From an uncultured Anaerolinea sp. (GTDB taxonomy: Bacteria; Chloroflexota; Anaerolineae; Anaerolineales; UBA4823), in assembly GCA_964503625.1 (NCBI GenBank), contig CAZDAU010000004.1, forward strand, positions 39,964 to 103,963: a stretch of 64,000 nt of DNA, read 5' to 3'. Each line of letters starts with the position of its first letter. Position 1 is the stretch's first letter. Below are positions 12,716-42,101 of the stretch, piece after piece. Under the pieces are notes generated by a model. The model did not search any database and was not told the DNA's origin. It saw only the letters and a program-made list of their open reading frames with translations. The position numbers and the translations under genes are program-made.

Positions 12716-13375
12716 TCAGGCGATCCCGTTGGGGGTAACCCAGCCCGCCCGAGCGGCGTAACGCAGCAGATCAACACTGCTGCGCACACCAACTTTGGTC
12801 ATCAGGCTGCTCCGATGGACTGAAACCGTTTTGGGGCTGATGCCCAGAAGATGGGCAATTTCTTTATTACTCTTGCCTTCAATCAAGTAATGGAGGACCT
12901 GCATCTCACGCTGGGTTAAACTCACTTTGGGGTCCGGTTCTTTGGCCTGCGGCTGGGTCAGGTTTTCAATCACCTGACGGGTAATACTGGCTTCCAAATA
13001 GGCGCCATGCTCAAAAACCTGATGAATAGCCGTCACCACTTCCCGGCCGCCTGAACGTTTTAGCACATACCCCGACGCCCCAGCGCGCAGCATTGGCTCA
13101 ACGTACTCGTGGTCATCATGCTGCGTCAGGATCAACACGCGCACCTGTGGGAAACGAGCTTTGATTTGCCGGGTCGCCTCTAATCCATCCATCTCCGGCA
13201 TGGAGACATCCATCAGCACCAGGTCGGGCAATAAAGCCTGGACTCGTTCAATTGCTTCGCGGCCATTGGCGGCCTCGCCCACCACATGGATATCCTCCTG
13301 CCGCTCGAGCAGCGAGCGGATACCATCCCGCAAAATTGCGTGGTCATCCACCACCAAAACCCGAATATCAGCCAT
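12716..13375 (-). CDS. NarL/LuxR-family response regulator
   Basis: REC domain (VVDDH, LMDVSMP) plus LuxR HTH (LTQREMQVL...SNKEIA). Confidence 0.93.
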   Translation of the reverse strand: MADIRVLVVDDHAILRDGIRSLLERQEDIHVVGEAANGREAIERVQALLPDLVLMDVSMPEMDGLEATRQIKARFPQVRVLILTQHDDHEYVEPMLRAGASGYVLKRSGGREVVTAIHQVFEHGAYLEASITRQVIENLTQPQAKEPDPKVSLTQREMQVLHYLIEGKSNKEIAHLLGISPKTVSVHRSSLMTKVGVRSSVDLLRYAARAGWVTPNGIA

Positions 13376-28340: not shown

Positions 28341-29009
28341 TTATTCCTCTTTGCGGTAATCGATATGGGCAATGCCAGCCCGCAGGGCATATAAAACCGC
28401 CTGGGTGCGGTTAGAAAGCCCCAGCTTGGCCAGGATGTTGGTGACGTGCGTGCGAACCGTCCGCTCGCTCAGCACCAGGACATCGGCAATCTCCTGGTTG
28501 GTCAAACCCAGGGCCATCTGCTGCAAGATCTCCACCTCCCGATCAGTCAACGCCCCGGCGGTGCTCGTCGCCCCTTCCTCGCCCTGGATTTCTTCCACCA
28601 GCTTGCGGGCGATCTCTGGCCCCAGGACTGGCTTGTTGCGGTAGGTATCCTGGATCGCCTGGAGCAAATCTTGCGAAGAGGTGTCCTTGATTAAATACCC
28701 AATTGCGCCGGCGCGAATGGCAGAGATCACCATGTGATCCTCAGCAAAACTGGTCAGCACCAGAATACGCGCCTGCGGATAGACTTTCTTTATTTCCAGG
28801 GTAGCCTGTACGCCATCCATGCGCGGCATGACCAGGTCCAGCAGAATGACATCCGGCTGCAGGTCTTTGGCCATGTGCACCGCTTCAAGGCCGTCCCCGG
28901 CAACCCCAATCACTTTCATCCCAGGCTCGGCCGAGATCAATGCCTTTAACCCGTCCCGCACCACGGTATGGTCGTCCACAATTAAGATACAAATCGGTCT
29001 CAGCGTCAT
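28341..29009 (-). CDS. NarL/LiaR-family response regulator
   Basis: IVDDH, LLDLVMP; LTDREVEIL...TNQEIA...RTHVTNIL. Confidence 0.93.
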   Translation of the reverse strand: MTLRPICILIVDDHTVVRDGLKALISAEPGMKVIGVAGDGLEAVHMAKDLQPDVILLDLVMPRMDGVQATLEIKKVYPQARILVLTSFAEDHMVISAIRAGAIGYLIKDTSSQDLLQAIQDTYRNKPVLGPEIARKLVEEIQGEEGATSTAGALTDREVEILQQMALGLTNQEIADVLVLSERTVRTHVTNILAKLGLSNRTQAVLYALRAGIAHIDYRKEE

Positions 29010-29043
29010 TGGGTCACCTCACTGGATGGAGATCTGGTCCTAC

Positions 29044-31557
29044 TTAGCGGATGACTCGCACCGTCACCCGGGTCCCTTGCCCGGCAACGGAGTCGAGCTC
29101 AAGCTGCCCGCCAAGGGCGGCAGCGCGCTCACGCATATTGGCCAGACCCATTCCGCCGTGGGATTTGTCGGCCGGGTCAAAGCCCTGGCCGTTGTCAATG
29201 ATCTCCAGGGTCACCCGGCCATTTTCGGCCCGCAGCGTAACCCGGACGGTGGAAGCATGGGCATGCTTCAGGGTGTTGTTCAATGCTTCTTCTGCTATGC
29301 GAAATAGATTCAAGGTCAGGGTAGGATCCAGGTCTGGATCGCCCTGGACGACCAGACGGGCATCGATACCCGAACGCTTTTCCACCGCTTCCAACCGCCG
29401 CTGCAAGGCGCGGCCCAGTCCTTCATCCAGGTCATTAGAGGGGCGCAGCTCATAAACCAGCAAGCGCATTTCTTTGAGCGCCTGCTGGGCAGCCTGCTCA
29501 ATGCGGGCCAGATGCTGCTCAGCCAATGGTGCATTCCCCTGGCGAAGGACCTTCATACTGGCGCCCGAAAACAATACCTGGCTGTAGAGCAACTGGGTCA
29601 CCGAGTCGTGCAGCTCACGCGCCAGGCGCTGTCGTTCTTGAACCACCGCAGCCAGCTCGGCTTGCTGGGCCAGGCGGGCCCGCTCCACCAGGGCGCCAAT
29701 CTGGTCGGCGATCGTCATGAACAGGGTGATATCTTCTATGGTGTAGTCCAGAATCGTCTCGCCAAACAGGCTGATCAATCCCAACACCTGGCCCTTTGCC
29801 CGCAGGGGCGCTCCAATGTAAGCCCGGCTGCCCCAGCCATCCAAGCCAGCCAGCTCCACAGCGAGGCCAGGCTGGGCATACAGGTCGGGCAACACGAGTG
29901 GATTTGGCGAGCGGATCAAGTTTTGCCAGAAAGCATCCTTTACCGGCAGCTCTTGCAGGGTGGCGGCTGTCCCTGTGGGCAGGTCGCGTTGTGCAGCCAG
30001 GACCAGCATTTGTCCTTTGTCATCCAGGAAGTGAATAGCACCTGAGCGGCTTTTCATTGCCTCCAGGGTGATGGCCAGAACCTGATCAAGCAAAGGATCC
30101 AATGGTAGCGGCTCGCTGGCCACCGCGTTGATCCGGTACAGGGTAGATAGGTGTTGGGTGCGAATGGCGACCTGCTTTTCCAGGGCTTCCAGCACCACCG
30201 CTCGCCGGAGCGAGGCGCCGGCAATCTCAGCCACAGCATTAAAAAGACGGATGCTGCGGACAGTGAACCTGCGCCGAGCATCGAAGACCAGGCACAGCAA
30301 ACCAAAGACCGCCTCACCCGTCTTGAGCGGCACCAAGACGGCAGACTGACCCTGACCAAAGAGGGCTGAAAAGAAGCCGGGGATCGAGGGACTTTCGGCT
30401 GCGGCGCGCTGGAGAAATTCGGCTGTCTCTGGGATGACCAGGAGCTGTCCGCTGTGCATGGTCTTCCACAGGACATCGTTTTCAGGGTCTTGGGTCTCTT
30501 TGAATGGATCGCGATAGGGATGAGACAACCCAACCAGCCGCTCATCCAGGCTGGCTTTGACCACCAGGCGGGTGCCTGTCCGGTCTGGGGAAAGGAGCGC
30601 GCTGCGGCTGGCTTCAAAAAAACGGGTGATGTGATCCAAGATCGCCAGCAGGGTATTGGAGCCTGAGCGCTCTGCACCGCTGCTTTCTGCCTGCCCCAAG
30701 GCAAAAGAGATGGTGGAGAGCACTTCTAGCTCTTCAGTGCGGCGGTGTGATTGCTCGCTCAGCCACACCCGCTCCAGGACCTGGGCTACCTGGGAAGCAA
30801 ACATCTGCATCGTTTTTGCGTCATCCTGGCTGTAAGCGTTGGGGGTCAGGGCTCCCAGCGAGATGAAGCCCAACATTTGCTGCCCAGCCAGAAGCGGCGC
30901 GCCCAGCCAACCGCGCACCGATTGGATATCTGGCCAGCGATCGAAGCGATGGTCGCTCTGGACATCGGCCACGATCAGCGGCCGGCCGGCGCTGCGCATC
31001 TCTGCAACCAACGGGTCTTCGTCCAGGTGAATTGCAGCAGATATTTCAGCGTTGCGGTCTGCCAGGACAATGCGCTCATTTTCATCTACCAGGAATAGCC
31101 CGGCGCGGTCATAATGGATCAATCCATGCAAGTTGACCAGCAGCGCCTCCAGGGTCTGTTTCAGATCGCCAGCGCCTGCCAGGGCGGCCATCACATCGCG
31201 CATCACTTCAGCTTCCTGCCGGCGCTGGTGTTCGCCGCGGCGGTCCACCCAGAGCAATTGCAGCGCAGGCTCACCCCGATAGATCGATTGGGAGATCAGG
31301 ATATCCACACAGCCGGCAACCTGCCCCCAATTTGTTGGACAGATTCCTTCCAGCAGGACCGGTTGCTCACGCTCTGCCAGGCGCAAGGCCTGGCGCACCC
31401 GCTTGCGATCCCTGGGATGGAAGATCTTTATCAGTTCCGCGCCCAAAGCAAAATTTGGATCGCCCGCGCACATGCGGTCAGCCTGGGGATCGGCAAAGAC
31501 GATGCACCCATCCTGAACAAGGATGAAACCATACGGCGTTCCGTCTGGAATGGTCAT
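29044..31557 (-). CDS. Cytoplasmic sensor histidine kinase (PAS-like, three GAF, HisKA_3, HATPase)
   Basis: ERQRLARELHDSV; EEALNN, DNGQGF, GMGLANM; repeated GAF-like segments; no TM. Confidence 0.9.
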   Translation of the reverse strand: MTIPDGTPYGFILVQDGCIVFADPQADRMCAGDPNFALGAELIKIFHPRDRKRVRQALRLAEREQPVLLEGICPTNWGQVAGCVDILISQSIYRGEPALQLLWVDRRGEHQRRQEAEVMRDVMAALAGAGDLKQTLEALLVNLHGLIHYDRAGLFLVDENERIVLADRNAEISAAIHLDEDPLVAEMRSAGRPLIVADVQSDHRFDRWPDIQSVRGWLGAPLLAGQQMLGFISLGALTPNAYSQDDAKTMQMFASQVAQVLERVWLSEQSHRRTEELEVLSTISFALGQAESSGAERSGSNTLLAILDHITRFFEASRSALLSPDRTGTRLVVKASLDERLVGLSHPYRDPFKETQDPENDVLWKTMHSGQLLVIPETAEFLQRAAAESPSIPGFFSALFGQGQSAVLVPLKTGEAVFGLLCLVFDARRRFTVRSIRLFNAVAEIAGASLRRAVVLEALEKQVAIRTQHLSTLYRINAVASEPLPLDPLLDQVLAITLEAMKSRSGAIHFLDDKGQMLVLAAQRDLPTGTAATLQELPVKDAFWQNLIRSPNPLVLPDLYAQPGLAVELAGLDGWGSRAYIGAPLRAKGQVLGLISLFGETILDYTIEDITLFMTIADQIGALVERARLAQQAELAAVVQERQRLARELHDSVTQLLYSQVLFSGASMKVLRQGNAPLAEQHLARIEQAAQQALKEMRLLVYELRPSNDLDEGLGRALQRRLEAVEKRSGIDARLVVQGDPDLDPTLTLNLFRIAEEALNNTLKHAHASTVRVTLRAENGRVTLEIIDNGQGFDPADKSHGGMGLANMRERAAALGGQLELDSVAGQGTRVTVRVIR

Positions 31558-31581
31558 CTGCGCTCAAGCGATAAAATCAAC

Positions 31582-31626
31582 CTGGCTCACGAAGAGACAG
31601 GCAGAATGCCCATCTTCGTGAGCCAG
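31582..31626 (-). terminator. Perfect 14-bp inverted repeat, terminator-like
   Basis: CTGGCTCACGAAGA (31582-31595) / TCTTCGTGAGCCAG (31613-31626); GTTGATTTTAT follows on the minus strand. Confidence 0.6.
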
Positions 31627-31698
31627 TTACGGTCTTACCTGAGTCACACCACAGAAATGCAGCTAAATTGCGCCGCCCAAGGGGGTGTGAATGTCGTT

Positions 31699-32262
31699 TC
31701 AAGCGGCTGGGGCAGGCTCGGCGGTCTCAGCAACCGGCTCGAGGTTGCCACGGCCATTGCTTTTTTCGCCAGCCGGTCCATCCAATTTTTGCCCGGTCTT
31801 CCTGGCTGCATCGCTGTTCTTTGCCGCCTGTTGTTGAGCCTGGCGGGCGCGGCGATACGCCGGGCTGTAAACAACGATTGCCTCGACAAAGACCTGGCGC
31901 ATTCTCGGATCCTGATCCAGGCTGCCATCAATCAGTTGCGCCAGGTTAAAATCCAGGCTGTCGGCAAATTCTTCCAAGGAGCGCCGAAAGGCCCAGGCTT
32001 CAGATTCCGAGAGGCTGGAAAGCCAGGTTTTGAAATCCTGGGGAAACAGGGCTGCGCCCTGGCCAAGTGCCCAGGCGCGGAAAGCTTCCGTTTCAGCCCG
32101 GCGGTTGAAAAGCCCACGCCAGCGCTCCCCCAGCCACCCAGTCCAGCGTTTGGTGGAAGCAACGGCTCTGCCTGTTGCACCATCCAGACGCTCGCCAAAA
32201 CGGCTAGACGCCAGCAGATAGCCCAGCAGGGCAAATAAAACCAACAGACTAAGCAGGTACAT
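31699..32262 (-). CDS. Hypothetical protein with N-terminal TM helix
   Basis: GGAG 6 nt before ATG; hydrophobic N-terminus ending GYLLASSRF. Confidence 0.7.
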   Translation of the reverse strand: MYLLSLLVLFALLGYLLASSRFGERLDGATGRAVASTKRWTGWLGERWRGLFNRRAETEAFRAWALGQGAALFPQDFKTWLSSLSESEAWAFRRSLEEFADSLDFNLAQLIDGSLDQDPRMRQVFVEAIVVYSPAYRRARQAQQQAAKNSDAARKTGQKLDGPAGEKSNGRGNLEPVAETAEPAPAA

Positions 32263-32411: not shown

Positions 32412-35255
32412 TCAGGACAAGTTTTTTGCCCGAGCGTTTGCATCGCTTTCAGCCAGCAGGCCGCCATCCAGGGTGAACTTACGCCATTCCGCACTGGCCC
32501 ACAACTCCTGGCGGACCGCCTGTTCAGCCGCCAGCAGGCTGGCATAGCGAGAACCCGGCTGTTTTGCCAGCACTTCCGGCATGCCATCCTCAACGATCCT
32601 GCCGTTTTCGATCACCAGGACACGGGGAAAAGCCAGCGTCTCGCCGACATCGTGGGTGATACAGAGCAGGGTGACGCCATCCCAATGCCGGCGGGCCTGC
32701 TCCAGAAGATTGCGCCGCTTTTCACGGTCCAGGCCGCGGAAAGGCTCATCCAGGATTACCAGGCGGGCCCCAACGCGGAGCATGGCTCTTCCCAGGCGCA
32801 CGCGCTGGCCCTCGCCACCGGAAACCAGGCCGCCTCCTTCGCCCAGGGGGGTCTTCAACCCGTCAGGCAGCCGATCCAGCACATCGTACAGGTCCGCCGA
32901 TTGGATCACTTCGCTCAACGGCCGGGCTTCGCTTTGCTCCATGCCATAGCGTAAATTATCGTACAAGGAGCGGTTCCAGAGCTGCACTGCCGGGTCCACC
33001 CAGGTGGTCTGGCGGCGCAAAGACTGCAGGCTGTTTCCATCCAGGGGCTGGCCATCCACTTGGATGCTACCCTGCGATGGCCGGTGCCAGCCCAAGAGCA
33101 AGCCAACCAGGCTGGATTTGCCTGCGCCTGACGGACCGACGATGGCCAGATGCTCGCCTGGCTGGATGTTCAGATTGATCCCCTCCAGGATAACGTGCCC
33201 GCCCGCTTGCAAGGTCACTTGCTGGATATCGATGCTCACCGGGGCAGAGACGGCTGGCTGAAGCATATCTTTTTGCTTCTCTGGGCTTTGAGACTCTATC
33301 GGCTGCGCCGCCCAGGCTTCTTCCTCATCCGGCGCGGTCAGTGGCTCCAGCAAGCGCAGGACCAAGTTGCGCTGCATGGGATACTGCTGAATCAAATCTG
33401 CCAGCGACTGGCCCAGAGCTGGTAGGCTGAGAGTCCAGTAGAAGAGCAGCAGGATCTCGTTGACATCACCGCCTTTCAAGAGGTAATTGACAATTATCAA
33501 AATGGCAAAGGCAGAGTACATCAAGGCGCCCAGAGCCTGTAAAATTGAGGCCAGGTTGTAGGATTCTCGCCCTGTGCGCACCCATTCATAGAGCTGGGTC
33601 TCGTGCTGACGGCGCATGGCCCGCTCAGCGCCATGGGTGCGCACAGGCACCAGTCCAAGCAGGGCGTCCAGGTAAAAGCGGCTCAAAGCCCCCGTGTGCG
33701 TGCGCAGGCGCAGGTCGCGCTCTTCCAGCAGCGGGCGGCTGGCAAAGGACAGGCCTACGAAGAAGGCCGTGCCCAAGATCGCCAATGGCGCGCTGATCGG
33801 ATCCAGCCAGATCACCCCAATCATGGTCAGGATGAGCTGGAAACCCGTCCGCAACAGGCCCACCCCCAGGTTGGGCAACGAGCGCAGGGCGCGCAGGTCA
33901 TGAGCGCGCTGGGTCATGTCGGAAGTCAGGCGGCTGCGGAAGTAGCGATCACCCAGGCGCGGGATTTTCTCCAGGAAGGCGATCCGCAGGCGGGCCTCCA
34001 GCCGCCGGCCCATGCGCAAAACCGTGGCGCTGATCGGAAATTCCAGCAGCAGAAGCGCCAGGACAAAAGCCAGCAAAGACAGGGAAGCCAGGATCCGCTG
34101 CGAGACCAGGGTCAGGTTCTGGCCAATGCGGATCATCCCCTGGAAAAGCAACGCTTCAATCAACACGCCCAGGGTTGCCAGGAACAAGGAAAGGACCAAC
34201 AAAGCAGGCGTGAGCAGGCCATCCTGGCGCAGGGCTTTCCAGACTTCTCTTTCCGGCCGCTGGACCGGCTCCTTGAGCGCTGCTTCCAGATCGGGGGGCA
34301 GCAAGACAGCCTGCGATATGCCGGCATCTTCTTGCGGGCCAGCCATTGCCGCGGCAGGTTTGCGTCCCAAAATGCGCACAAGCACTGCGCCACGCAAAAG
34401 CAGGTGCTGCAGCGGCTCTGTGCCGCTGGCCTGGGCTTCATTCTCAATAACGGGCAAGACCGACCAATAAGCCGCCGGGATCACCAGGCTCTCTGGGGCC
34501 TGATCTTGCAGCACCGATCCCTGGCGGCTTTCAACTTCGGGGAGAGGGCCAACCAGGTTGAGGCGATAGAAACGCTCCAGCACCCGACCCGCCTCGCTGC
34601 CAGCGAGCAGGCCGCGCGCCCGCACCAGGGAGGCGGTCATGCGCGTGGCTGCGTCCAGGGTGGCCAGGGCGCGCCAGCCAGGATCTTGCAGCGCGTCTTC
34701 AATCAACCGAGAGGCTTCCTGGTCGGCGATTTTTAAATCGGCCATCCGCCGGCGCAATGGCGCCAGCAAGCCTTCCGAACCAGCCCAAGCGCGCCAATCC
34801 TGGACCGGCACCGGAAACGAATGAATGTATAACTCTTGCTGGAAACGCTTCCAGCTTGGCCAGCGCCGTCCGGTAGCCGGATCCATCACCTGCAGCCTGT
34901 TCCCCACCCGGTTCCAGACCACCAGGAAGTGGGTCAATCCACTGGGCCGCTGAACCACCACAATGGCCGGCAGAGCCTGGGCTTCATCGAGCACCAGATG
35001 GTCCGCAGGGAGCATCACCTGTTCCGCCTGCAGGCCAAGCTGGATGGCAATATCTTCAATTGTGTTGATCGAAGTGCCGTCCACATCGGTCTGGCAGGCT
35101 TCGCGCAGGCGCCCGTAGCTCACCGGGATGTTGAAACCCTCCAGCAGGGATTTAAGCGCCGCCGGCCCGCAATCCATCGCTGAGGTCTGTACTACCTCAG
35201 GGGCAAAGAAACGTTGGCCCGGAACTGGCACTTCAAGACGCATGATGTGGGTCAA
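32412..35255 (-). CDS. Peptidase C39-containing ABC exporter (PCAT)
   Basis: QTSAMDCG, THFLVV, VMDP catalytic motifs; TMD; GPSGAGKS, VSGGE, ILDEP, ITHD. Confidence 0.92.
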   Translation of the reverse strand: MTHIMRLEVPVPGQRFFAPEVVQTSAMDCGPAALKSLLEGFNIPVSYGRLREACQTDVDGTSINTIEDIAIQLGLQAEQVMLPADHLVLDEAQALPAIVVVQRPSGLTHFLVVWNRVGNRLQVMDPATGRRWPSWKRFQQELYIHSFPVPVQDWRAWAGSEGLLAPLRRRMADLKIADQEASRLIEDALQDPGWRALATLDAATRMTASLVRARGLLAGSEAGRVLERFYRLNLVGPLPEVESRQGSVLQDQAPESLVIPAAYWSVLPVIENEAQASGTEPLQHLLLRGAVLVRILGRKPAAAMAGPQEDAGISQAVLLPPDLEAALKEPVQRPEREVWKALRQDGLLTPALLVLSLFLATLGVLIEALLFQGMIRIGQNLTLVSQRILASLSLLAFVLALLLLEFPISATVLRMGRRLEARLRIAFLEKIPRLGDRYFRSRLTSDMTQRAHDLRALRSLPNLGVGLLRTGFQLILTMIGVIWLDPISAPLAILGTAFFVGLSFASRPLLEERDLRLRTHTGALSRFYLDALLGLVPVRTHGAERAMRRQHETQLYEWVRTGRESYNLASILQALGALMYSAFAILIIVNYLLKGGDVNEILLLFYWTLSLPALGQSLADLIQQYPMQRNLVLRLLEPLTAPDEEEAWAAQPIESQSPEKQKDMLQPAVSAPVSIDIQQVTLQAGGHVILEGINLNIQPGEHLAIVGPSGAGKSSLVGLLLGWHRPSQGSIQVDGQPLDGNSLQSLRRQTTWVDPAVQLWNRSLYDNLRYGMEQSEARPLSEVIQSADLYDVLDRLPDGLKTPLGEGGGLVSGGEGQRVRLGRAMLRVGARLVILDEPFRGLDREKRRNLLEQARRHWDGVTLLCITHDVGETLAFPRVLVIENGRIVEDGMPEVLAKQPGSRYASLLAAEQAVRQELWASAEWRKFTLDGGLLAESDANARAKNLS

Positions 35256-35746
35256 TCCTGGGGGTTCTGCGGACTGACAGGCAGCTGGCTGCGGTTGAGG
35301 AATTTACCCGAGGTGCGCAAAACCAGCTCTGCAGGCGTGACATATTCCACTTCCACATCCACCTGGCCGGAGATCTCGCCCTGCTGCACATCAACTGGCA
35401 GCCCGCCAGAAAGCACCATGATTTCAACTTGTTCCCCCTCCCGTGGCAAATCCCAGACCACAGCCGAAAGAGTCAGCGCGGGTTGGTCGGGTCCCTGGCT
35501 CAAGCGCAGGATGGCGGGCATTCCAGGGCGCAGGCGTGAGCGGGACTCTTTTGGGAAAGTGACCAGAATTTTTCCGTCGGCGGCCATTTCCACCGAGTTG
35601 CTGATTTCGTACAGCGTCACTTTGGCCAGGAAAAACCACAGGATCAAGGCCAGCATGATGAAGATGGCAAAAACTAAGCCAATGCGCGTGGCACGGAAAC
35701 TATCCAGGCGCAAGGCGCGCATTGAGCGAGAGAATTGAATGGACAC
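35252..35746 (-). CDS. Truncated HlyD-like membrane-fusion/adaptor protein
   Basis: One N-terminal TM; RLRPGMPA and GQVDVEVEYVTPAELVLR beta-barrel-like segments; only 164 aa; stop overlaps PCAT start. Confidence 0.6.
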   Translation of the reverse strand: MSIQFSRSMRALRLDSFRATRIGLVFAIFIMLALILWFFLAKVTLYEISNSVEMAADGKILVTFPKESRSRLRPGMPAILRLSQGPDQPALTLSAVVWDLPREGEQVEIMVLSGGLPVDVQQGEISGQVDVEVEYVTPAELVLRTSGKFLNRSQLPVSPQNPQD

Positions 35747-35996: not shown

Positions 35997-38201
35997 ATGG
36001 CAGCCAGAGAGCCCAATCTTGAACAGATCGCCTGGCCGGTGACCCGTCTGGGTGAGTTAACCGAAAATCTGGCGCGTAAAGCCGGGCTGACTGCCCGGCT
36101 GGTTCAGTTGCCTCAGCCGCCCGACGGTTTGGGCTTATCCAGCGACGCGGAACTCGGCGCCTGGCTGGACAACGCCGCCGGCTACCTGGGGCTGGAAGCG
36201 GAGCCGGTGAGCGCGCAATACGCCGATCTGGACCTTTTGCTCCAGGCCGGCGGCCCGGCGATCCTGAGGCTGCCAGGCACATCTCCGACAGGCGAATCGC
36301 TCGCCGGCCCTGCTTTTGTGGCGCTGGTGCGCGGCGCATCTAACAAGGTTTCCATCCTGTGCCCAGATCTGCGCGTGCGCCGCCTGAACCTGGCAACGCT
36401 GCAGGCCTTGCTCACCCGGCCTTATGACGCTTATCTGGGGGAGCAAATTGATCAACTGCTGGTCGATGCCGATGTGCCGGCGGAACGGCTGCAGCGTGCC
36501 CGGGCGGCTGTTTTGCGCGACCAGCTCGGCCCTCTGCGGATAGAGGCGGGCTGGCTGCTGCGCCTGCCGCCCTCGGCCAGCCTGCACAACCAGTTCCACC
36601 ATGCCGGGGTTTATCGACCGGTCAGGATCATGCTGTTCATGTATTTTATCCAGCAGTTGCTCTCGGTGGCTTCCTGGTTTGTCATCGGCCGGGGAATTTT
36701 CCAGGGCCATTTTGACCTGGGTTGGCTGGCAGCCTGGGCCATCCTGTTGCTCTCATCTATTCCGGTACAAATCGTTGTCAGCGATGCCCAAAGCGAGCTC
36801 TCGATGAGCGCAGGTGCGCTGTTCAAGCAACGGCTGATCCTGGGCACCCTGAAGCTGGATCCAGAAGAAATTCGCCACCAGGGCATGGGCCAGTTTCTGA
36901 ACCGGGTGATGGAATCTGAGGCGGTGGAGATGCTGGCTCTGAGCGGCGGTTTCACTGCCCTGCTCTCATTTATTGAGCTGGGCCTGGCCGTTGTGATCCT
37001 CTTCAATGGCTCTGGCGGAGCTATCAGCGCCGCCAGCCTGGTGATCTGGGTGTTGCTCACCCTGGTGATGCTGTGGCGCTACTATCAAAACAGCCGCGAA
37101 TGGACTGAGGCCTACCGGGAGATGACCAATCACCTGGTGGAGGAGATGGTTGGCCACCGCACCCGCCTGATCCAGCAAGACCCGCGCCGCTGGCATGAAG
37201 ATGAGGATCAGGAATTGGATCGCTATCTTAAGCTCTCCGAAAGCATGGATCAAACAGGTATCGGGATCAGCTCTTTCATCACCCGGGGCTGGATCCTGGT
37301 CGGCCTGGCGGGGATTGCCCTGGCCTATGTGGCGGGCAATCCCACTCCACAATCGCTGGCGATCAGCCTGGGTGGGATGCTGCTGGCCTCGCAAGGCTTG
37401 GGCAAGCTCACCGCCGGAACACAGAGCTTATCCAGCCTGGCCAACGCCTGGCAACAGGTTGGGCCGCTGTTCAAAGCCGCTGCCCGCCCGCGCCAGTTAC
37501 CTGCCCTGGGCTTCGTCCCGCCGGCTCGCGGCCGGATGCCAGACTCATCGGCTGCAGGGCAGGTCCAGACGGCACCTGCTAACGGACAGCAAGCGTTGAT
37601 TCAGGCCAGGGATGTGAGCTTTCGCTACCGGCCGCAAGGCCGGTCGATCTTGCAGGATTGCACCTTACAGATTTACCCTGGAGATCGACTCTTGTTGGAA
37701 GGACCTTCGGGCGGCGGAAAATCCACCCTTGCGGCTGTGCTCACCGGCTTGCGAGCGCCCGAATCCGGCTCGCTTTTGCTCTGGGGCTTCGACCGCCAAT
37801 TGCTTGGCGTGGAGGAATGGCGCAAACGAGTGGTCATGGCGCCCCAATTCCAGGAAAACTACGTGTTTTCTGAGACGCTGGCGTTTAACTTGCTGATGGG
37901 GCGAGGTTGGCCACCTAAACCCGAGGACCTTGAGGAAGCCGAGAGCATTTGCCAGGAACTGGGCCTGGGCGAGGTGCTCCAGCGTATGCCCTCCGGATTC
38001 CAGCAGATGGTCGGCGAGAGCGGCTGGCAGCTTTCGCATGGCGAGCGCAGCCGGCTGTTCATTGCCCGCACCTTGCTGCAGAAAGCCGACCTGATCGTAT
38101 TGGACGAGAGCTTCGGCGCGTTGGACCCCGAGAACCTGGAGCGCGCTTTGCAGTGTGTGCTGCGACGTGCGCCAACTTTGCTGGTCATCGCACACCCATA
38201 G
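35997..38201 (+). CDS. ABC exporter with inactive C39-like domain (probable heterodimer partner)
   Basis: LGLEAEPV...PAI aligns with the C39 domain but the Cys/His/Asp motifs are absent; GPSGGGKST, LSHGE, VLDES; ends at IAHP. Confidence 0.85.
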   Translation: MAAREPNLEQIAWPVTRLGELTENLARKAGLTARLVQLPQPPDGLGLSSDAELGAWLDNAAGYLGLEAEPVSAQYADLDLLLQAGGPAILRLPGTSPTGESLAGPAFVALVRGASNKVSILCPDLRVRRLNLATLQALLTRPYDAYLGEQIDQLLVDADVPAERLQRARAAVLRDQLGPLRIEAGWLLRLPPSASLHNQFHHAGVYRPVRIMLFMYFIQQLLSVASWFVIGRGIFQGHFDLGWLAAWAILLLSSIPVQIVVSDAQSELSMSAGALFKQRLILGTLKLDPEEIRHQGMGQFLNRVMESEAVEMLALSGGFTALLSFIELGLAVVILFNGSGGAISAASLVIWVLLTLVMLWRYYQNSREWTEAYREMTNHLVEEMVGHRTRLIQQDPRRWHEDEDQELDRYLKLSESMDQTGIGISSFITRGWILVGLAGIALAYVAGNPTPQSLAISLGGMLLASQGLGKLTAGTQSLSSLANAWQQVGPLFKAAARPRQLPALGFVPPARGRMPDSSAAGQVQTAPANGQQALIQARDVSFRYRPQGRSILQDCTLQIYPGDRLLLEGPSGGGKSTLAAVLTGLRAPESGSLLLWGFDRQLLGVEEWRKRVVMAPQFQENYVFSETLAFNLLMGRGWPPKPEDLEEAESICQELGLGEVLQRMPSGFQQMVGESGWQLSHGERSRLFIARTLLQKADLIVLDESFGALDPENLERALQCVLRRAPTLLVIAHP

Positions 38202-38238: not shown

Positions 38239-38267
38239 ACACAAGATTGGTAAAGGAAACTTACACG

Positions 38268-38450
38268 ATGAAAATTCGCACCGGATTGAAAGCAGGCCAG
38301 GGGTTAGGAGACACCGTTGCCGACCTGGCTCACCTGACCGGCATGGACCAGTTGGCCAGGGTATATGAACAAACCACCGGAAAAAGCTGCGGCTGCGATC
38401 AGCGCCGACAGACGCTCAACCAGCTATTTCCATTCAGACAGAGCGCTTGA
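38268..38450 (+). CDS. 60-aa peptide, candidate PCAT substrate
   Basis: MKIRTGLKAG-QGLGDTVADLAHLTGMDQLARVYEQTTGKSCGCDQRRQTLNQLFPFRQSA; own RBS and extended -10. Confidence 0.75.
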   Translation: MKIRTGLKAGQGLGDTVADLAHLTGMDQLARVYEQTTGKSCGCDQRRQTLNQLFPFRQSA

Positions 38451-38463
38451 CTGAAAACCAGGC

Positions 38464-39483
38464 ATGCCCTTTAGAAGGCTGATTTTCCTTATCTTTGTGG
38501 TTGCCCTGCTGGCCGGGTGTCAGTCTGGGTCGCAACGCAATTGCCCGGATCAGTGTATCAGTGTCAATCTGAATAGCGCCAATTTGCGCGACCAGGATTT
38601 CAGCAACGCCCAGATGATGAATGCAAATTTGACCAAGGCCAACCTGGTTGAAGCCGACCTGAGCAACGCCAACCTGACTGGCGCCACACTCTCGCAAGCA
38701 GACATGGAAAGCGCAAACCTGACCGGGGCGCGCCTGGTTGGGAGCGACCTTTCGCTGGCTAACCTGCGCAATGCCTACCTGGACCAGGCTGATCTGAGCG
38801 GCGCTGATTTGAGCGGGGTCTCGATGATCCGCGTTGACCTGACCAGGACCTTGATGAACGGCGTCCGGCTGGGCGGCGCAGAAATGATTGGCTGCAACCT
38901 GGGCGGTGTGAACCTGAACGGCGTCGAGATGTATGAAGCCAACCTGAGCGGCGCCCTGCTGAATGACAGCAGTCTGAACGGGAGTGTGCTCAGCCTGTCC
39001 AATTTTAACGGCGCCGACCTGCGCCGGGCGCGACTCTCTGGCTCGTGGATAAACCTCGGCCAACTGGTGGGCGCAAACCTGCAAAGCGCCGACCTCACCG
39101 GCAGTACCTTCTTTGGCACCAATCTGACTGGCGCTGATCTTTCCAACGCCAAACTCAACGGCGCTTTTCTGGCCGGGACAGACCTGAGTGGTGCAGACCT
39201 GCGCGGAGCGGACCTGACCGGAGCAATCCTGGAACTGCCGTATCCCCCAAATGCTCCGGCAGGCTTCTCTTATGAAAACCTGACCGGCAGCGAATTTTTA
39301 CAGGCGCTTAACCAGACCGAAATGAGCCGCATCCTGGCCGACCGACGAGTGGCTGCCCTGACCGAGGTGCGCCTGAAGCCATACCTGCATAACGCTATCC
39401 TGCAAGGCGTAATCTACGATGAGAACACGGCCTGGCCCCTGGGCTTTGATATCCCCTCTTCGGCTATCTACCAGGGAAAGTGA
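38464..39483 (+). CDS. Pentapeptide-repeat lipoprotein
   Basis: LLAGC lipobox; many A(D/N)LXX repeats; CPDQC N-cap; YDENTAWPLGF C-cap. Confidence 0.9.
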   Translation: MPFRRLIFLIFVVALLAGCQSGSQRNCPDQCISVNLNSANLRDQDFSNAQMMNANLTKANLVEADLSNANLTGATLSQADMESANLTGARLVGSDLSLANLRNAYLDQADLSGADLSGVSMIRVDLTRTLMNGVRLGGAEMIGCNLGGVNLNGVEMYEANLSGALLNDSSLNGSVLSLSNFNGADLRRARLSGSWINLGQLVGANLQSADLTGSTFFGTNLTGADLSNAKLNGAFLAGTDLSGADLRGADLTGAILELPYPPNAPAGFSYENLTGSEFLQALNQTEMSRILADRRVAALTEVRLKPYLHNAILQGVIYDENTAWPLGFDIPSSAIYQGK

Positions 39484-41315
39484 CTTTGGACATGGTTGAT
39501 AAATCACCTGCTCAGAAAAAGAAATTTGTCTGGCGTGAATGGCTTGATGAAGCCGCGGTGCTGCTGGTGGTCCTGGCAGTCATTGGCAGCATTTATCTGT
39601 TTCGCAACCTGAGCTGCCCGCCGCGCTGCACCAATGCCAACCTGACTGGCAGGGATTTCCGTGACAAACCGCTGGACGGCGCTGACTTCACCAATGCCAT
39701 CCTGAATGGCGCGGATTTCACCGGCGCATCCCTGCGCGGTGCCAAACTTAACGGGGCCGACCTGAGCGGCTCGGTCCTGGTCTCCTCAAACCTGGCTGAG
39801 GCCGATTTTACCGACGCCATCCTGTTGGGCGCTCAACTGAACGGCGCCAACCTGACCGGGGCAACCCTGCAGAACACCAACCTGAGCAGCGCCGACCTCT
39901 CCAGCGCCATTCTCAAAGATGTCGACCTGACCCAAGATGTTCAGCTCACCGCCATCCGGTTGAACAAGGCCAACCTGATCGGGGCTAAGCTGAATGGGGC
40001 CAGGCTGAGCGGGGCGCTGATCACGGATGCCAATTTAAACGGGGCCGATCTTTCCGGCGCTGAACTGAGCGGGGTGAACCTGGAAGGTTCCGAAATGTAC
40101 GGCGCCAACCTGACCAAAGCAAACTTGCTCGGTGCCACCCTGGACCGAGCAAACCTGGTGGGGGCATCCTTGCCTGGAGCCAACCTGGCCGGCGCCAGCT
40201 TTTTCAACGCTGACCTCTCCGGATCTGATCTGACCAATGCTGACCTGACCGGGATTGTAAGCACCTCCGGGTATTTCGATGGCTCGATCATGACCGGCGC
40301 AAAGCTCAACCGGGCCCGGTTTTATGGCTCCGGGTTGGCCGGGGTGGTGCTGGAAAACGCCGACCTGACGGACGCCCGCTTTGATATTTACGAGCAAAAC
40401 GGCCAAATCACGCGCACTAATCTGGATGGTTCCCTGTTAAACCGGTCCGATCTCTCCGGCAGTTACCTGGCCGGCGCAACCCTTGCCGGGGCAGATTTGA
40501 CCCAGGCAGACCTGAGCCGCAGCGACTCGGCACCGGTCACGATTGTCGACAACCGCCAGATCGGTGGGATTACCCAAACCCTGAAAGCCGTGCTCTACGG
40601 CGCTAACCTTTCTGGAGCCGATTTCCAGGCTGCCAAGCTGGCAAACGCTGATTTGCGTGGCCTGAACCTTTCCAGGGCTAACTTCCGCCATGCTGATTTA
40701 CGCGGCGCTGACCTGAGCGCCGTGAACATGTCTGGAGCCGACCTGCGAGGCGCAAACATGGCAGGCGCTGACCTGGCTAACACCGACATGCTTGGCGCCA
40801 GGCTTGCCGGGGCCAACCTTTCTGGCACCGACCTCTCGGAAGTCAACCTGGATGGCGCTGCCCTGTGGAGCAGCACGCCGGTGACATTCACCGCCGACCT
40901 GACCTACGCAGAGCTGTTTCGTTTCCTGGCGCAAAGCGATTGCTTTAATGGGGATTTTCTGGTGGCGAATAACGGCACAGTAGCCAACGTGCCGGTGCGC
41001 TTTGATGAAGATGCAGGCAGCAACTTTTACTACAGCGAGATCTGGCGCAACGCCCGCGCCTATGTCTGCGCGGCCGACCTGAGCGATACCCGAATGTGGG
41101 GAAAACGTCTCTTGCCAACCTCGCTGGCTGGCGTGAACCTCACTGGCGCCGATCTGCGCTTCACCAATCTTCAGAATGTAAAATTTCAGGAAGAAATCAA
41201 GCTGGAAGACAACCTGAGCTATCTTTTAAAGGCGAACCTGGGCAAAATCGTTTACAACAGCTTCACGTCCTGGCCGAGCGATTTCATCCCCCCAGCCTCG
41301 GCCTCTACAGAGTAG
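39480..41315 (+). CDS. TM-anchored pentapeptide-repeat protein
   Basis: N-terminal TM; CPPRC; long A(D/N)LXX tracts; YNSFTSWPSDF C-cap. Confidence 0.9.
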   Translation: MTLDMVDKSPAQKKKFVWREWLDEAAVLLVVLAVIGSIYLFRNLSCPPRCTNANLTGRDFRDKPLDGADFTNAILNGADFTGASLRGAKLNGADLSGSVLVSSNLAEADFTDAILLGAQLNGANLTGATLQNTNLSSADLSSAILKDVDLTQDVQLTAIRLNKANLIGAKLNGARLSGALITDANLNGADLSGAELSGVNLEGSEMYGANLTKANLLGATLDRANLVGASLPGANLAGASFFNADLSGSDLTNADLTGIVSTSGYFDGSIMTGAKLNRARFYGSGLAGVVLENADLTDARFDIYEQNGQITRTNLDGSLLNRSDLSGSYLAGATLAGADLTQADLSRSDSAPVTIVDNRQIGGITQTLKAVLYGANLSGADFQAAKLANADLRGLNLSRANFRHADLRGADLSAVNMSGADLRGANMAGADLANTDMLGARLAGANLSGTDLSEVNLDGAALWSSTPVTFTADLTYAELFRFLAQSDCFNGDFLVANNGTVANVPVRFDEDAGSNFYYSEIWRNARAYVCAADLSDTRMWGKRLLPTSLAGVNLTGADLRFTNLQNVKFQEEIKLEDNLSYLLKANLGKIVYNSFTSWPSDFIPPASASTE

Positions 41316-41342
41316 GCTCCCGGCCGGTCAACGGGAGGTATC

Positions 41343-42101
41343 ATGACTCAAACGATCACTGTGGCAAATCAGAAGGGCGGGGTGGGTAAGACCACAACCG
41401 CGGTCAACCTGGCGCATGGCCTGGTCTTGCAGGGTAAACGCGTCTTGCTCGTCGATCTGGACCCGCAGGGCCAGTGCGCCACGATCCTGGGATTAAAGCC
41501 CGAGCCGGGCACATTCAACCTGTTAGTGGCTGAATCCCCGTTCAAGCAAGTGACGCGCCTGACCGATCGGAAAGGTCTGCTGGTCATATTGGGAGACCGG
41601 AAGACCTCAACTGCGCAGACCGTGCTCAACGTCCAGCGCACGCCCATTTCGTTCATCCACAGCAAGCTGGTCGTCCCGGCCCAAAAGGATGGACTGGATT
41701 ACATTGTCATCGATACTTCTCCCAGTGTGGGGGAATTGCAAGAACAGGCGCTGTGGGCTGCGGATGGCGTACTGATCCCTTGCGCCGTCGATTACCTGGC
41801 GACCGATGGGGTGTACAACATTGCCCAAACCCTCAAGCGCATCCAGGAGGAGTACAAATGGCAGGGCCGTGTTCTGGGCATCTTGCCCACATTCTATGAT
41901 ACGGTTACCCGAGAGAGTAAAGCCACGTTACAGGACCTGCAAAAGCGCTTTTCCGGCGCCATGCTCAGCCCCATTCACCGTGCCACGATCCTGCGCGAAT
42001 GCGCCGTAGAGGGCAAAACAATTTTCGAGATGGCCCCCGAAAGCCGAGCTGCAAAACAATACCTGGGGCTGGTGGAACATGTCTTGAATTGGGGAGGTTA
42101 G
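41343..42101 (+). CDS. ParA/Soj-family ATPase (no parB nearby)
   Basis: NQKGGVGKTTT, VDLDPQG, IDTSP; GGGAGGT RBS. Confidence 0.9.
   Translation: MTQTITVANQKGGVGKTTTAVNLAHGLVLQGKRVLLVDLDPQGQCATILGLKPEPGTFNLLVAESPFKQVTRLTDRKGLLVILGDRKTSTAQTVLNVQRTPISFIHSKLVVPAQKDGLDYIVIDTSPSVGELQEQALWAADGVLIPCAVDYLATDGVYNIAQTLKRIQEEYKWQGRVLGILPTFYDTVTRESKATLQDLQKRFSGAMLSPIHRATILRECAVEGKTIFEMAPESRAAKQYLGLVEHVLNWGG

Follow-up and report, generated by a model that had tools for sequence, protein, structure and literature searches.

Adaptors of the HlyD/CvaA/ComB/LcnD type, typically about 350-480 aa long, have a cytoplasmic N-terminal tail, a single transmembrane (TM) anchor, and an extracytoplasmic portion with a beta-barrel, a lipoyl domain, and an alpha-helical hairpin, and are encoded beside a C39-peptidase ABC exporter; the hairpin tip reportedly carries the TolC-binding motif. 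Gram-positive adaptors in general retain the hairpin, and the accessory proteins of ComAB/BlpAB-type exporters are full-length (about 450 aa). The reason for such full-length, hairpin-bearing adaptors in Gram-positive bacteria remains unclear, and what adaptors do apart from TolC bridging is an open question. Hairpin-less forms were expected in Gram-positive bacteria and had not been found there, and removal of the HlyD N-terminus abolishes both TolC recruitment and HlyB activation (PMC4446572). According to Zhao et al. 2022, as relayed in PMC10386944, the cytosolic segment 35-50 of HlyD makes a contact with the C39-like domain of HlyB on which secretion depends.

The window (the whole 64-kb stretch of DNA analysed here) encodes a 164-aa protein that has the tail, the anchor, the barrel, and the neighbouring exporter gene in common with HlyD-type adaptors, but it lacks the lipoyl domain and the hairpin and could form no TolC-docking hairpin tube. 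BesA of Borrelia burgdorferi (an RND adaptor; PDB 4KKS-4KKU) is likewise a natural adaptor without the alpha-hairpin, described as atypical on that account (PMC3807786, PMC4446572, PMC8277102), and its barrel is among the Foldseek matches of the window protein. However, BesA retains lipoyl, barrel, and membrane-proximal domains, whereas the window protein has the barrel only; BesA also serves an RND pump and, in a diderm cell, works together with the outer-membrane channel BesC, whereas the window protein is paired with an ABC exporter of the peptidase-containing type (PCAT). The MFS adaptor EmrA (PDB 4TKO) is similarly TM-anchored, with no membrane-proximal domain and the barrel next to the membrane, but unlike the window protein it carries a lipoyl domain as well as a coiled coil of 127 A (PMC4158417).

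The adaptor gene and its conservation

The barrel-only HlyD-family adaptor gene (the "mini-adaptor" gene) lies on the minus strand at positions 35252..35746 and encodes 164 aa between a GTG start and a TGA stop, as the first-pass annotation had it. GGAG is found 7 nt 5' of the GTG. By alignment, the GTG is the right start, because the motif FSRSxRSLxxDS (residues 5-16) begins before Met9 and is conserved in both short and long relatives; gene callers that choose Met9 (156 aa) cut this motif off. The frame is judged to be more than a chance ORF, since word-index search gave 128 homologues (E<=1e-3), profile search gave 1630 cluster representatives, and dN/dS within Anaerolineae is 0.087-0.11. 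An alignment of 45 family sequences has 9 invariant and 23 nearly invariant columns. Family members are proteins of ~165 aa; relatives at 88% to ~25% identity are all ~155-200 aa.

One alternative is a decaying remnant, in which a full-length HlyD gene was recently truncated or became a pseudogene. Such decay has some precedent among the acidobacterial short forms, which are 74% identical to neighbouring long forms, show a relaxed dN/dS of 0.29 (vs. 0.077 for those long forms), and adjoin fragmented transporter genes (PCAT and ABC), although this combination could reflect either decay or long-read sequencing error. In the window, by contrast, an intact reading frame follows a ribosome-binding site, and the PCAT and ABC genes are intact as well. 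Estimates of dN/dS in the Anaerolineae clade are 0.087 for the adaptors of L009 and L012 and 0.11 for those of the window and L008 (a pair in which dS is saturated), which indicates, at the level of codon comparison, that the short form is conserved under purifying selection. All 14 Chloroflexota-labelled genomes found carry the short form, relatives in this phylum remaining short down to ~25% identity, and together with the low dN/dS this means that the gene is neither a pseudogene nor a recent truncation. Uniform shortness, low dN/dS, and intact genes thus contradict the remnant explanation for the Anaerolineae clade and leave it very improbable overall; the first-pass judgement that the ORF is not a decaying pseudogene is upheld.

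Architecture of the mini-adaptor

Residues 1-21 (35684..35746, minus strand) form a basic cytoplasmic tail with the motif FSRSxRSLxxDSFR, as delineated by alignments and charge count, in which R10 and D15 are invariant. A single TM helix follows at residues 22-41 (35624..35683, minus strand; hydropathy and AlphaFold2); it contains the lone hydrophobic segment of the protein (residues 22-40, mean Kyte-Doolittle hydropathy 2.98) and the invariant W37. An N-in, C-out topology is predicted because the N-terminal flank has five K/R and one D/E, vs. two K/R and three D/E on the C-terminal flank. The remainder, residues 42-146 (35309..35623, minus strand), is assigned by AlphaFold2, Foldseek, and hhalign to an extracytoplasmic six-stranded beta-barrel with a capping helix, and includes the conserved motif GQVEVEVEYVTPAxLVLR. 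AlphaFold2 models (pLDDT 79 for the whole protein and 83 for the soluble part alone) show one long helix at residues 5-40 (pLDDT 92-97), then six strands and the short capping helix, with the first strand placed directly after the TM helix. The models contain no coiled coil, and no helix interrupts the barrel after its first strand, in agreement with the original description of a TM helix followed by barrel-like segments.

Pfam and NCBIfam scans of the 164-aa protein return no family at E<=1, and the curated adaptor models (HlyD_3, HlyD_D23, Biotin_lipoyl_2, TIGR01843, TIGR01730, and TIGR01000) do not match it. One of 45 family members matches HlyD_3, at E 0.093, and where a source gives family members a name, it is "hypothetical protein". 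Because neither Pfam nor NCBIfam detects the family, Chloroflexota PCAT loci appear adaptor-less when they are not.

Derivation from full-length HlyD adaptors

The equivalent operon position in Acidobacteriota, Myxococcota, Planctomycetota, and other phyla is taken by a HlyD_3 protein of ~390-410 aa. Profile search recovered full-length orthologues such as P0252 (410 aa) and P0259 (398 aa), and both of these, the long forms scanned, pass the Pfam HlyD_3 cut-off of 22.2 bits (58 and 53 bits, respectively). P0259 additionally matches Biotin_lipoyl_2 at residues 63-92 (E 3.6e-4), at 20.7 bits and thus under the 29.8-bit cut-off, and the long orthologues match TIGR01843 and TIGR00998 with E values of 1e-20 to 1e-25, under the curated cut-offs.

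Alignment of the window protein with these long forms falls into two blocks (residues 1-58 and 62-153), a split that is common to all long loci. In BLASTP with P0259, residues 1-54 match 1-54 (43% identity, E 2e-15) and residues 59-139 match 285-370 (E 2e-6). With a profile built from 53 full-length orthologues, the match to the window ORF (E 3.7e-24) is confined to profile positions 2-58 and 288-384, and hhalign aligns the window protein with the barrel of the 53 long forms at 99.8% probability. The junction falls at residues 52-58 (VEMAADG; 35573..35593, minus strand), where alignment and the long-form profile place ~229 missing positions. Long-form positions 59-287, which include the lipoyl (barrel-sandwich hybrid) domain, have no counterpart in the window protein, and the ~150 coiled-coil residues that make up the hairpin contacting the outer-membrane factor are likewise missing. 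The first-pass annotation was therefore right that the hairpin has been lost, but the deletion is larger than stated there, because the lipoyl domain is also gone. A split gene was considered and rejected: searching with a profile of the missing middle recovered 66 ORFs in other loci, but neither the 64-kb window nor the Chloroflexota loci contained a match.

The structural comparison is compatible with an adaptor barrel. Among adaptors, EmrA (4tko) scores best in Foldseek (TMq 0.53, rmsd 3.9 A over 82 columns), but the adaptor barrels (EmrA, MacA, and BesA; E 5e-3 to 8e-2) are found among generic small barrels, and the top matches are the barrels of Upf1 1B and F1-ATPase, so that the fold alone is not specific. 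These top matches, with weak PilZ matches in three family members (E 0.011), could instead point to an unrelated small membrane protein whose barrel (e.g., PilZ-like or OB-like) has converged on that of adaptors. Convergence would not account for two-block sequence homology to HlyD_3-positive orthologues at the same operon position; the profile comparisons contradict it, and we regard it as exceedingly improbable. It is the sequence homology, rather than the fold, that is decisive for HlyD descent, and on these alignments the window protein is a HlyD-family derivative reduced by internal deletion to a tail, a TM anchor, and a beta-barrel.

The PCAT partner and proposed function

Directly downstream of the adaptor gene and co-oriented with it is a gene for a PCAT (32412..35243, minus strand) that comprises a C39 peptidase, a TM domain, and a nucleotide-binding domain. 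The assignment draws on Pfam (Peptidase_C39 at 72.5 bits, ABC_membrane, and ABC_tran), on the catalytic Cys and His motifs legible in the translation (SAMDCGPAAL and HFLVV..DP), and on a match to PCAT1 (4ry2; E 2e-41) among PDB relatives. The protein would be 947 aa long from a TTG at 35255 or 943 aa from an ATG at 35243; the ATG is the more likely start because of N-terminal homology (MRLEVPVPGQRF vs. MRLLETPIPGQRF in the closest relative). The overlap of adaptor stop and PCAT start that had been reported (TTGA) exists with the TTG, but not with the likelier ATG, which is 8 nt past the stop. Either start leaves the two genes tightly coupled, and more distant relatives have overlaps of the forms GTGA, ATGA, and TAATG.

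In every locus with enough flanking sequence, the adaptor gene adjoins an orthologous ~940-aa C39-ABC exporter; in most loci it is upstream of the PCAT gene, but in the L034/L045/L081 group it is downstream. A second ABC half-transporter (734 aa, Pfam ABC_tran, no C39 match) completes the module as its third member; it is divergently transcribed in the window (35997..38201, plus strand) and comes after the PCAT gene in most loci, short-form and long-form alike. The adaptor-PCAT-ABC module is kept with both short and long adaptors, with phmmer E values of ~1e-165 to 0 for intact PCATs. An adaptor, a peptidase-ABC protein, and a second ABC protein without the peptidase are also found in NHLP/NHLM bacteriocin export (TIGR03794/TIGR03796/TIGR03797); the best NCBIfam matches of the window PCAT are TIGR03796 and TIGR03797, and long-form adaptors match TIGR03794. 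Scores nevertheless fall well short of the curated equivalog cut-offs for the PCAT (197 vs. 853 bits), the ABC protein (122 vs. 709 bits), and long-form adaptors (33-52 vs. 156 bits), and no NHLP or Nif11 precursor was seen. The window system is an orthologous group separate from NHLP/NHLM. Among 10 ORFs upstream of the modules in seven loci (five long-form and two short-form), there is no OEP gene.

It is likely that the mini-adaptor is a reduced member of the HlyD/membrane-fusion lineage that still serves as an accessory subunit of the adjacent PCAT exporter, and we infer such a continued role for the family, with the second ABC protein taking part in most loci. The TM helix would pack against the TM helices of the transporter, and the tail (FSRSxRSLxxDS) would contact the cytoplasmic N-terminal domain of the transporter, in the manner of the HlyD tail on the HlyB C39-like domain. 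On the outer face of the membrane, the barrels would make up a low collar. With no lipoyl ring or hairpin tube, the protein would neither reach nor open a TolC-type channel, and the cargo (presumably a peptide whose leader has been cleaved) would leave the exporter at the outer side of the cytoplasmic membrane, which would be enough for a cell without an outer membrane.

A HlyD descendant repurposed for another task (e.g., immunity, anchoring, or regulation as a membrane protein) and merely co-transcribed with the PCAT gene would be in keeping with the loss of two of the three extracytoplasmic domains and with divergence beyond the reach of any family model. However, the best-conserved parts are the tail and the TM helix, which in HlyB/HlyD make the contact with the transporter and which the long forms have as well, and the immediate, often overlapping, place upstream of the PCAT gene is kept across phyla despite rearrangement of other genes. 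We therefore consider repurposing improbable, and retain the reading of the mini-adaptor as an exporter subunit.

Distribution and repeated loss of the lipoyl-hairpin module

The short form is found in all 14 Chloroflexota-labelled loci, vs. four of 64 other labelled loci (Fisher p = 3e-12, a value that carries no phylogenetic correction), and is near-fixed in the sampled Chloroflexota. The Chloroflexota loci belong to several deep clades with differing gene orders. Short forms also occur in a few diderm lineages: L023 and L036 are on Acidobacteriota contigs of >1 Mb, L088 shares a Deltaproteobacteria-labelled contig with a secretin gene, and L022 (Acidobacteriota) and L019 (labelled Betaproteobacteria) are likewise short and have orthologous PCATs. 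The PCATs and adaptors of L020, L019, and L022/L023/L036 are nearest to long-form operons, and the breakpoints differ; the lipoyl domain and hairpin were thus lost in at least 3-4 independent events.

From best hits, synteny, and the literature, we infer an Anaerolineae host that has no outer membrane. The earlier suggestion that the short adaptor suits a cell without an outer-membrane channel agrees with the contrast between Chloroflexota and other phyla, but not with L023, L036, and L088; because of such diderm lineages, the link between the short form and a missing outer membrane is strong but not exclusive. Shortening could instead be set by the type or destination of the cargo, with a product (e.g., a signalling peptide, or one associated with the wall or membrane) that leaves the exporter on the outer side of the inner membrane or in the periplasm, Chloroflexota having merely inherited one such lineage. 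This would accommodate the diderm-lineage short forms with orthologous PCATs (L022, L023, L036, L019, and L088 with its secretin), as well as the extracytoplasmic pentapeptide-repeat proteins, small conserved protein, and two-component system that are particular to the Anaerolineae cluster and absent from long-form loci. Against it, 14 of 14 Chloroflexota are short across several deep clades, with L020 nearest to long-form operons, a pattern that points to phylum-specific repeated loss or fixation; furthermore, the diderm short forms are rare (4/64), and some lie on short contigs that may be misbinned or next to transporter genes that are fragmented. A cargo-driven origin is accordingly somewhat unlikely.

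The repeated, independent loss of exactly the lipoyl-hairpin module suggests that what the ABC transporter itself needs from an HlyD-type adaptor is the tail, TM helix, and barrel. A broader proposition, plausible but tentative, is that barrel-only proteins are natural minimal adaptors, with the tail, TM helix, and barrel required by ABC/PCAT exporters for assembly or activation, and that the lipoyl domain and hairpin are a separable outer-membrane-bridging cassette, excised cleanly and repeatedly when bridging is not needed, its loss having become essentially fixed in Chloroflexota. The family bears on the role of adaptors apart from TolC bridging: its members are natural deletion mutants of the expected kind, in a short state conserved under selection, and the window protein may show the minimal working core of a HlyD adaptor. 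If the minimal-adaptor reading is true, the family would provide the first clear instance of a form predicted, but not found, for monoderm adaptors. Adaptor architecture might also mark envelope type in the debate on the Chloroflexota envelope, a use limited by the diderm exceptions. Orthologous operons with or without the lipoyl-hairpin cassette provide a candidate minimal transporter-interacting core, and matched long and short adaptor pairs are usable for biochemistry and cryo-EM.

Other genes of the cluster

A conserved ~60-aa protein (38247..38450, plus strand; start MKIRTG at 38268, motif GLGD...TGKSCGC), recognised by alignment, is encoded beside the ABC gene in most, although not all, Anaerolineae-type loci. 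It has no family match in Pfam or NCBIfam and no canonical double-glycine leader in the alignment, and is a candidate for the cargo or signal of the exporter. It is followed on the plus strand (38464..42101; Pfam and synteny) by co-conserved genes for two pentapeptide-repeat proteins, a 339-aa lipoprotein and a TM-anchored protein of 611 aa, and for a ParA-like ATPase (252 aa).

In ComAB/BlpAB-type exporter loci of Gram-positive bacteria, genes for a PCAT, an adaptor-family accessory protein, a small peptide, and a histidine kinase/response regulator pair are similarly found together, and these systems are a functional analogy for the window locus; unlike the ComD-like membrane receptor, however, the window kinase is of the GAF type. 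Downstream of the PCAT gene on the minus strand (28341..32262), the window encodes a 187-aa TM protein (no Pfam match), the GAF histidine kinase (837 aa), and a LuxR-type response regulator (222 aa), assigned from synteny and the Pfam matches of relatives, and this set is co-conserved in relatives.

Gene structure, conservation, and predicted topology

The mini-adaptor gene (window 35252..35746 (-)) encodes a 164-aa protein with a GTG start and a TGA stop, and translation of the ORF bears out its earlier description. A GGAG precedes the GTG by 7 nt. Alignments place the motif FSRSxRSLxxDS (residues 5–16) among the best-conserved parts of the family; because this motif precedes the first internal Met, we take the GTG as the correct start. 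Public gene calls for the window gene and its relatives P0001, P0004, and P0027 often begin at Met9 (156 aa), by which window 35722-35746 (-) is omitted and half of the conserved cytoplasmic FSRSxRSL motif is lost. The stop codon, previously described as overlapping the start of the adjacent C39-peptidase ABC exporter gene (PCAT; window 32412-35243 (-); 943 or 947 aa, depending on the start), does so only if TTG 35255 is used; N-terminal homology makes ATG 35243, 8 nt downstream of the stop, the likelier start. The adaptor and PCAT genes do overlap in more distant relatives. Scans of the locus for promoters and terminators yielded nothing above shuffled expectation, and the locus is present in DNA runs from freshwater metagenomes only.

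A word-index search returned 128 homologues at E<=1e-3, nearly all of 140–200 aa, and those bearing a source name are called "hypothetical protein." An exhaustive profile search recovered 1630 cluster representatives at E<=1e-3 (896 at E<=1e-10), and 148 of the best 150 of these representatives are 83–233 aa long. Nine columns are invariant over 45 diverse members (R10, L12, D15, W37, F64, G75, R81, P138, and G147), and another 23 are >=90% conserved. The dN/dS ratio is 0.087 for two Anaerolineales mini-adaptor genes and 0.11 for the window gene against that of locus L008, the latter with saturated dS. Both homologue sets and both ratios argue for a real conserved gene rather than a remnant, and bear out the first-pass annotation in regarding the ORF as intact and not as a decaying pseudogene.

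The protein has a single hydrophobic stretch (residues 22–40), flanked by five basic residues and one acidic residue on its N-terminal side and by two basic and three acidic residues on its C-terminal side, from which an N-in, C-out topology is predicted. The AlphaFold2 model built from the 45-sequence alignment (mean pLDDT 79; 83 for residues 42–152 modeled alone) comprises a helix at residues 5–40 followed by six beta-strands plus a short capping helix; neither the full nor the barrel-only model has a coiled coil.

Descent from full-length HlyD adaptors

Scans of the 164-aa protein against Pfam and NCBIfam gave no family at E<=1, and when all 45 family members were run against Pfam, nothing beyond noise came up (YebO, DUF4492, PilZ, and, once, HlyD_3 at E 0.09). 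A profile search of PDB sequences with the family found nothing significant, the top match being CesT (E 1.6). The exhaustive profile search also recovered two proteins of ~400 aa, P0252 and P0259, each matched in two stretches. Both exceed the Pfam HlyD_3 gathering score of 22.2 (58 and 53 bits, respectively) and match type_I_hlyD, EmrA/EmrK, and NHLM_micro_HlyD (NCBIfam) below the curated cut-offs; P0259 additionally has a sub-threshold Biotin_lipoyl_2 match at residues 63–92 (E 3.6e-4; 20.7 bits vs. a cut-off of 29.8). By BLASTP, residues 1–54 of the window protein align with residues 1–54 of P0259 (43% identity, E 2e-15), and residues 59–139 align with residues 285–370 (E 2e-6).

This two-block relationship extends across the 80 loci returned by a scan of one genome per species, which the short-family profile divides into two classes. 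In the contiguous class (short forms), the protein is ~160–190 aa, counting from where the profile match begins, whereas in the split class (long forms), it is ~385–415 aa, with profile positions 1–58 at residues ~1–60 and 59–152 at ~290–390. In the reverse direction, a profile built from 53 long forms aligns to the window ORF over profile positions 2–58 and 288–384 (E 3.7e-24), and hhalign pairs the short and long alignments with 99.8% probability. The identification as a HlyD-type adaptor is thus upheld by the two-block match to HlyD_3-positive orthologues together with the hhalign result. The protein had been described as lacking the hairpin, which is indeed absent, but this understates the deletion: in the multiple alignment, the missing ~229 positions (59–287 of the long form; hereafter, the cassette) comprise the first lipoyl half, ~150 coiled-coil residues, and the second lipoyl half. 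The cytoplasmic tail and TM helix are retained, as is the whole barrel, whose first strand directly follows the helix. In adaptors, the hairpin is nested within the lipoyl domain, and the lipoyl domain within the barrel (PMC4446572); it is this nesting that would allow the barrel to be kept despite loss of the cassette.

Structural comparison had been proposed as a check on this identity. Foldseek searches with the full and barrel-only models retrieve EmrA (4tko; TMq 0.53), MacA, and BesA, but these adaptors are interspersed among mainly generic small barrels (Upf1 1B, the N-terminal barrels of F1-ATPase and FliI, and FAD-reductase barrels), with Upf1 1B and F1-ATPase ranking top. The outcome is consistent with an adaptor barrel without discriminating it from other small barrels. 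F1-ATPase N-terminal barrels have the same topology as the adaptor barrel (PMC4446572).

A split gene, with the cassette encoded nearby, was also considered. A profile of the lipoyl and hairpin region matches 66 ORFs in non-Chloroflexota loci but no ORF, in any of the six frames, of the window or the Chloroflexota loci; thus, the missing part is not encoded separately nearby, and we reject this idea in favor of deletion.

Taxonomic distribution and independent losses

Ten-gene synteny and best matches suggest that the window locus belongs to the Anaerolineae. Loci L008 and L015, which carry the names of the cultured species Anaerolinea thermophila and Caldilinea aerophila, respectively, derive from MAGs. 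The short form occurs in all 14 Chloroflexota-labelled loci (Anaerolineales, Caldilineaceae, Ardenticatenaceae, and "Chloroflexia") and in one unlabelled MAG, and the long form in about 60 loci from Acidobacteriota, Myxococcota, Planctomycetota, and Gemmatimonadota, as well as one Heliomicrobium-labelled contig. Short/long counts of 14/0 in Chloroflexota vs. 4/60 elsewhere differ at p = 3e-12 (Fisher's test, without phylogenetic correction). The long adaptor and PCAT of the Heliomicrobium sp. contig (L055) are 86–90% identical to genes of Blastocatellia MAGs; this contig is probably misbinned or recently transferred, and therefore does not make a good case for monoderms having the long form.

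The four short-form exceptions are L023 (Terriglobia; 1.15-Mb contig), L036 (Acidobacteriaceae; 1.84-Mb contig), L022 (Bryobacteraceae; 4-kb contig), and L019 (labelled Betaproteobacteria; 9-kb contig). The P0152 type represents another short group, with the NCBI label Deltaproteobacteria; its contig (L088) encodes a PCAT 56% identical to that of the window and a secretin (L088 12230-13645 (-)), the latter implying that the organism has an outer membrane.

The cassette appears to have been lost more than once. By nearest neighbours, L022, L023, and L036 are nested among acidobacterial long-form operons (up to 74% identity for the adaptor and 65–77% for PCAT); the adaptor and PCAT of L020, a Chloroflexota chromosome, have acidobacterial and myxobacterial long forms as their nearest relatives; and those of L019 are likewise closest to long-form operons. 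The breakpoints also differ: at this point the window clade carries a non-homologous linker of 7 residues, while five residues are kept after the first strand in L020, ~18 in L023, and ~27 in the P0152 type. Together, nearest neighbours and breakpoints indicate that this same cassette was deleted independently at least three or four times. The count relies on the breakpoints and on the closest relatives of the adjoining PCAT, and not on a tree; neighbour joining on the short stretch of shared adaptor columns gave zero-length sister pairs between phyla, which are obvious artefacts, and its result was discarded.

The acidobacterial short forms have a dN/dS of 0.29 vs. 0.077 in neighbouring long forms, and fragmented transporter genes adjoin them. 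In many loci of the "MFD" long-read MAGs (L023, L036, L083, L071, L029, L030, and others), PCAT and the ABC gene are in 2–7 pieces, irrespective of whether the adaptor is short or long. Because frameshifts are common in those long-read assemblies, decay in the acidobacterial loci is indistinguishable from sequencing error, and a broken frame in any of the MFD loci is by itself no sign of pseudogenisation.

Proposed function and comparison with known adaptors

The cytosolic segment of HlyD makes an essential contact with the C39-like domain of HlyB, and residues near the adaptor TM helix touch HlyB TM1/2 (Zhao et al. 2022, as summarised in PMC10386944); without its N-terminus, HlyD neither activates HlyB nor recruits TolC (PMC4446572). 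The tail, TM helix, and membrane-adjacent barrel are also the best-conserved parts between short and long forms. On the basis of this conservation and of the HlyB/HlyD contacts, we propose that the mini-adaptor still serves the exporter as an accessory subunit. Its tail and TM helix would dock onto the PCAT/ABC pair, and the barrels would sit on the membrane's outer face as a low collar; with neither lipoyl ring nor hairpin tube, cargo would be freed on the outer side of the cytoplasmic membrane. This would suffice if no outer membrane is present, and Chloroflexota are described in a preprint as increasingly regarded as monoderm (bioRxiv 10.1101/2025.08.19.671072). The first-pass view of an adaptor suited to a cell without an outer-membrane channel is well supported statistically by the 14/0 vs. 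4/60 distribution, but the short state is found in diderms as well. There, it may reflect periplasmic release, decay, or help from another adaptor; with regard to the last, L088 encodes, 4.5 kb upstream of the short adaptor and PCAT, a 731-aa protein (L088 1347-3542 (+)) that weakly matches Peptidase_M50 and HlyD_3. A comparison of long-form with short-form loci for an outer-membrane-factor gene beside the module found none among 10 upstream ORFs in seven loci (five long-form and two short-form), and so does not tell the two classes apart.

The mini-adaptor, which belongs to the HlyD lineage by descent, may be likened in its working to the HlyD/ComB-type accessory proteins of peptide exporters, but lacks two defining features of the family architecture (the lipoyl domain and hairpin), and curated models miss it. 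BesA, the one solved hairpin-less adaptor, differs in that it keeps the lipoyl and membrane-proximal domains and uses an outer-membrane channel; EmrA is without a membrane-proximal domain but has a very long hairpin. The NHLP export system has a similar three-gene layout, but all scores here are far below the NHLP cut-offs. The searchable literature, of which coverage was incomplete, yielded no description of a barrel-only adaptor, and we rate the mini-adaptor as a new architectural variant within the known HlyD family.

The exporter module and its neighbours

Wherever a locus includes enough flank, the adaptor gene lies directly next to a PCAT orthologue, upstream of it in most loci and downstream in the L034/L045/L081 group. 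Most loci also have a second ABC half-transporter (~730 aa) in the module. Both statements apply whether the adaptor is short or long (phmmer E-values ~1e-165 to 0 for intact PCAT genes, and ~1e-130 to 0 for intact second ABC genes). The window PCAT, a relative of PCAT1, has the C39 motifs SAMDCGPAAL and HFLVV..DP. Between its C39 domain (21–141) and TM domain (from ~343) are ~200 extra residues (~142–342), which have no family matches and are conserved in orthologues, including that of the Deltaproteobacteria-labelled contig (56% identity over 940 aa). The second ABC (window 35997-38201 (+)) has the degenerate signature LSHGE instead of LSGGQ, and its ORF stops two residues past the H-loop (…LLVIAHP*), with relatives of equal length; these features suggest an asymmetric heterodimer with PCAT. 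Its first ~200 aa have no family match, and a BLASTP comparison of this region with the PCAT C39 domain gave no significant similarity, so that a Cys-less C39-like domain at the N-terminus is unsupported.

Anaerolineae-type loci usually add a ~60-aa protein, two pentapeptide-repeat proteins, a ParA-like ATPase, a 187-aa TM protein, and a GAF kinase/LuxR pair, although not every such locus has the full set. The ~60-aa conserved protein (window 38247-38450 (+); MKIRTGLKAGQGLGD...TGKSCGC...LN), directly after the second ABC in most of these loci, has neither a family match nor a canonical double-glycine leader, and is a possible candidate for a cargo or signal peptide of the exporter. The pentapeptide-repeat proteins, followed by the ParA-like ATPase (window 38464-42101 (+)), are both predicted to be extracytoplasmic: one (339 aa) has a lipoprotein signal with the lipobox LAGC, and the other (611 aa) an N-terminal TM anchor. 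These three genes usually accompany the exporter in Chloroflexota loci, and long-form loci lack them. The 187-aa protein (window 31699-32262 (-)), which has an N-terminal TM segment and no Pfam match, is conserved directly downstream of PCAT in several relatives. Elsewhere in the window, a 941-aa sensor kinase (Cache-HAMP-PAS-GAF-HisKA_3) and a LuxR-type response regulator (12716-16193 (-)) form another pair of the same type as the exporter-adjacent kinase/regulator pair (28341-31557).
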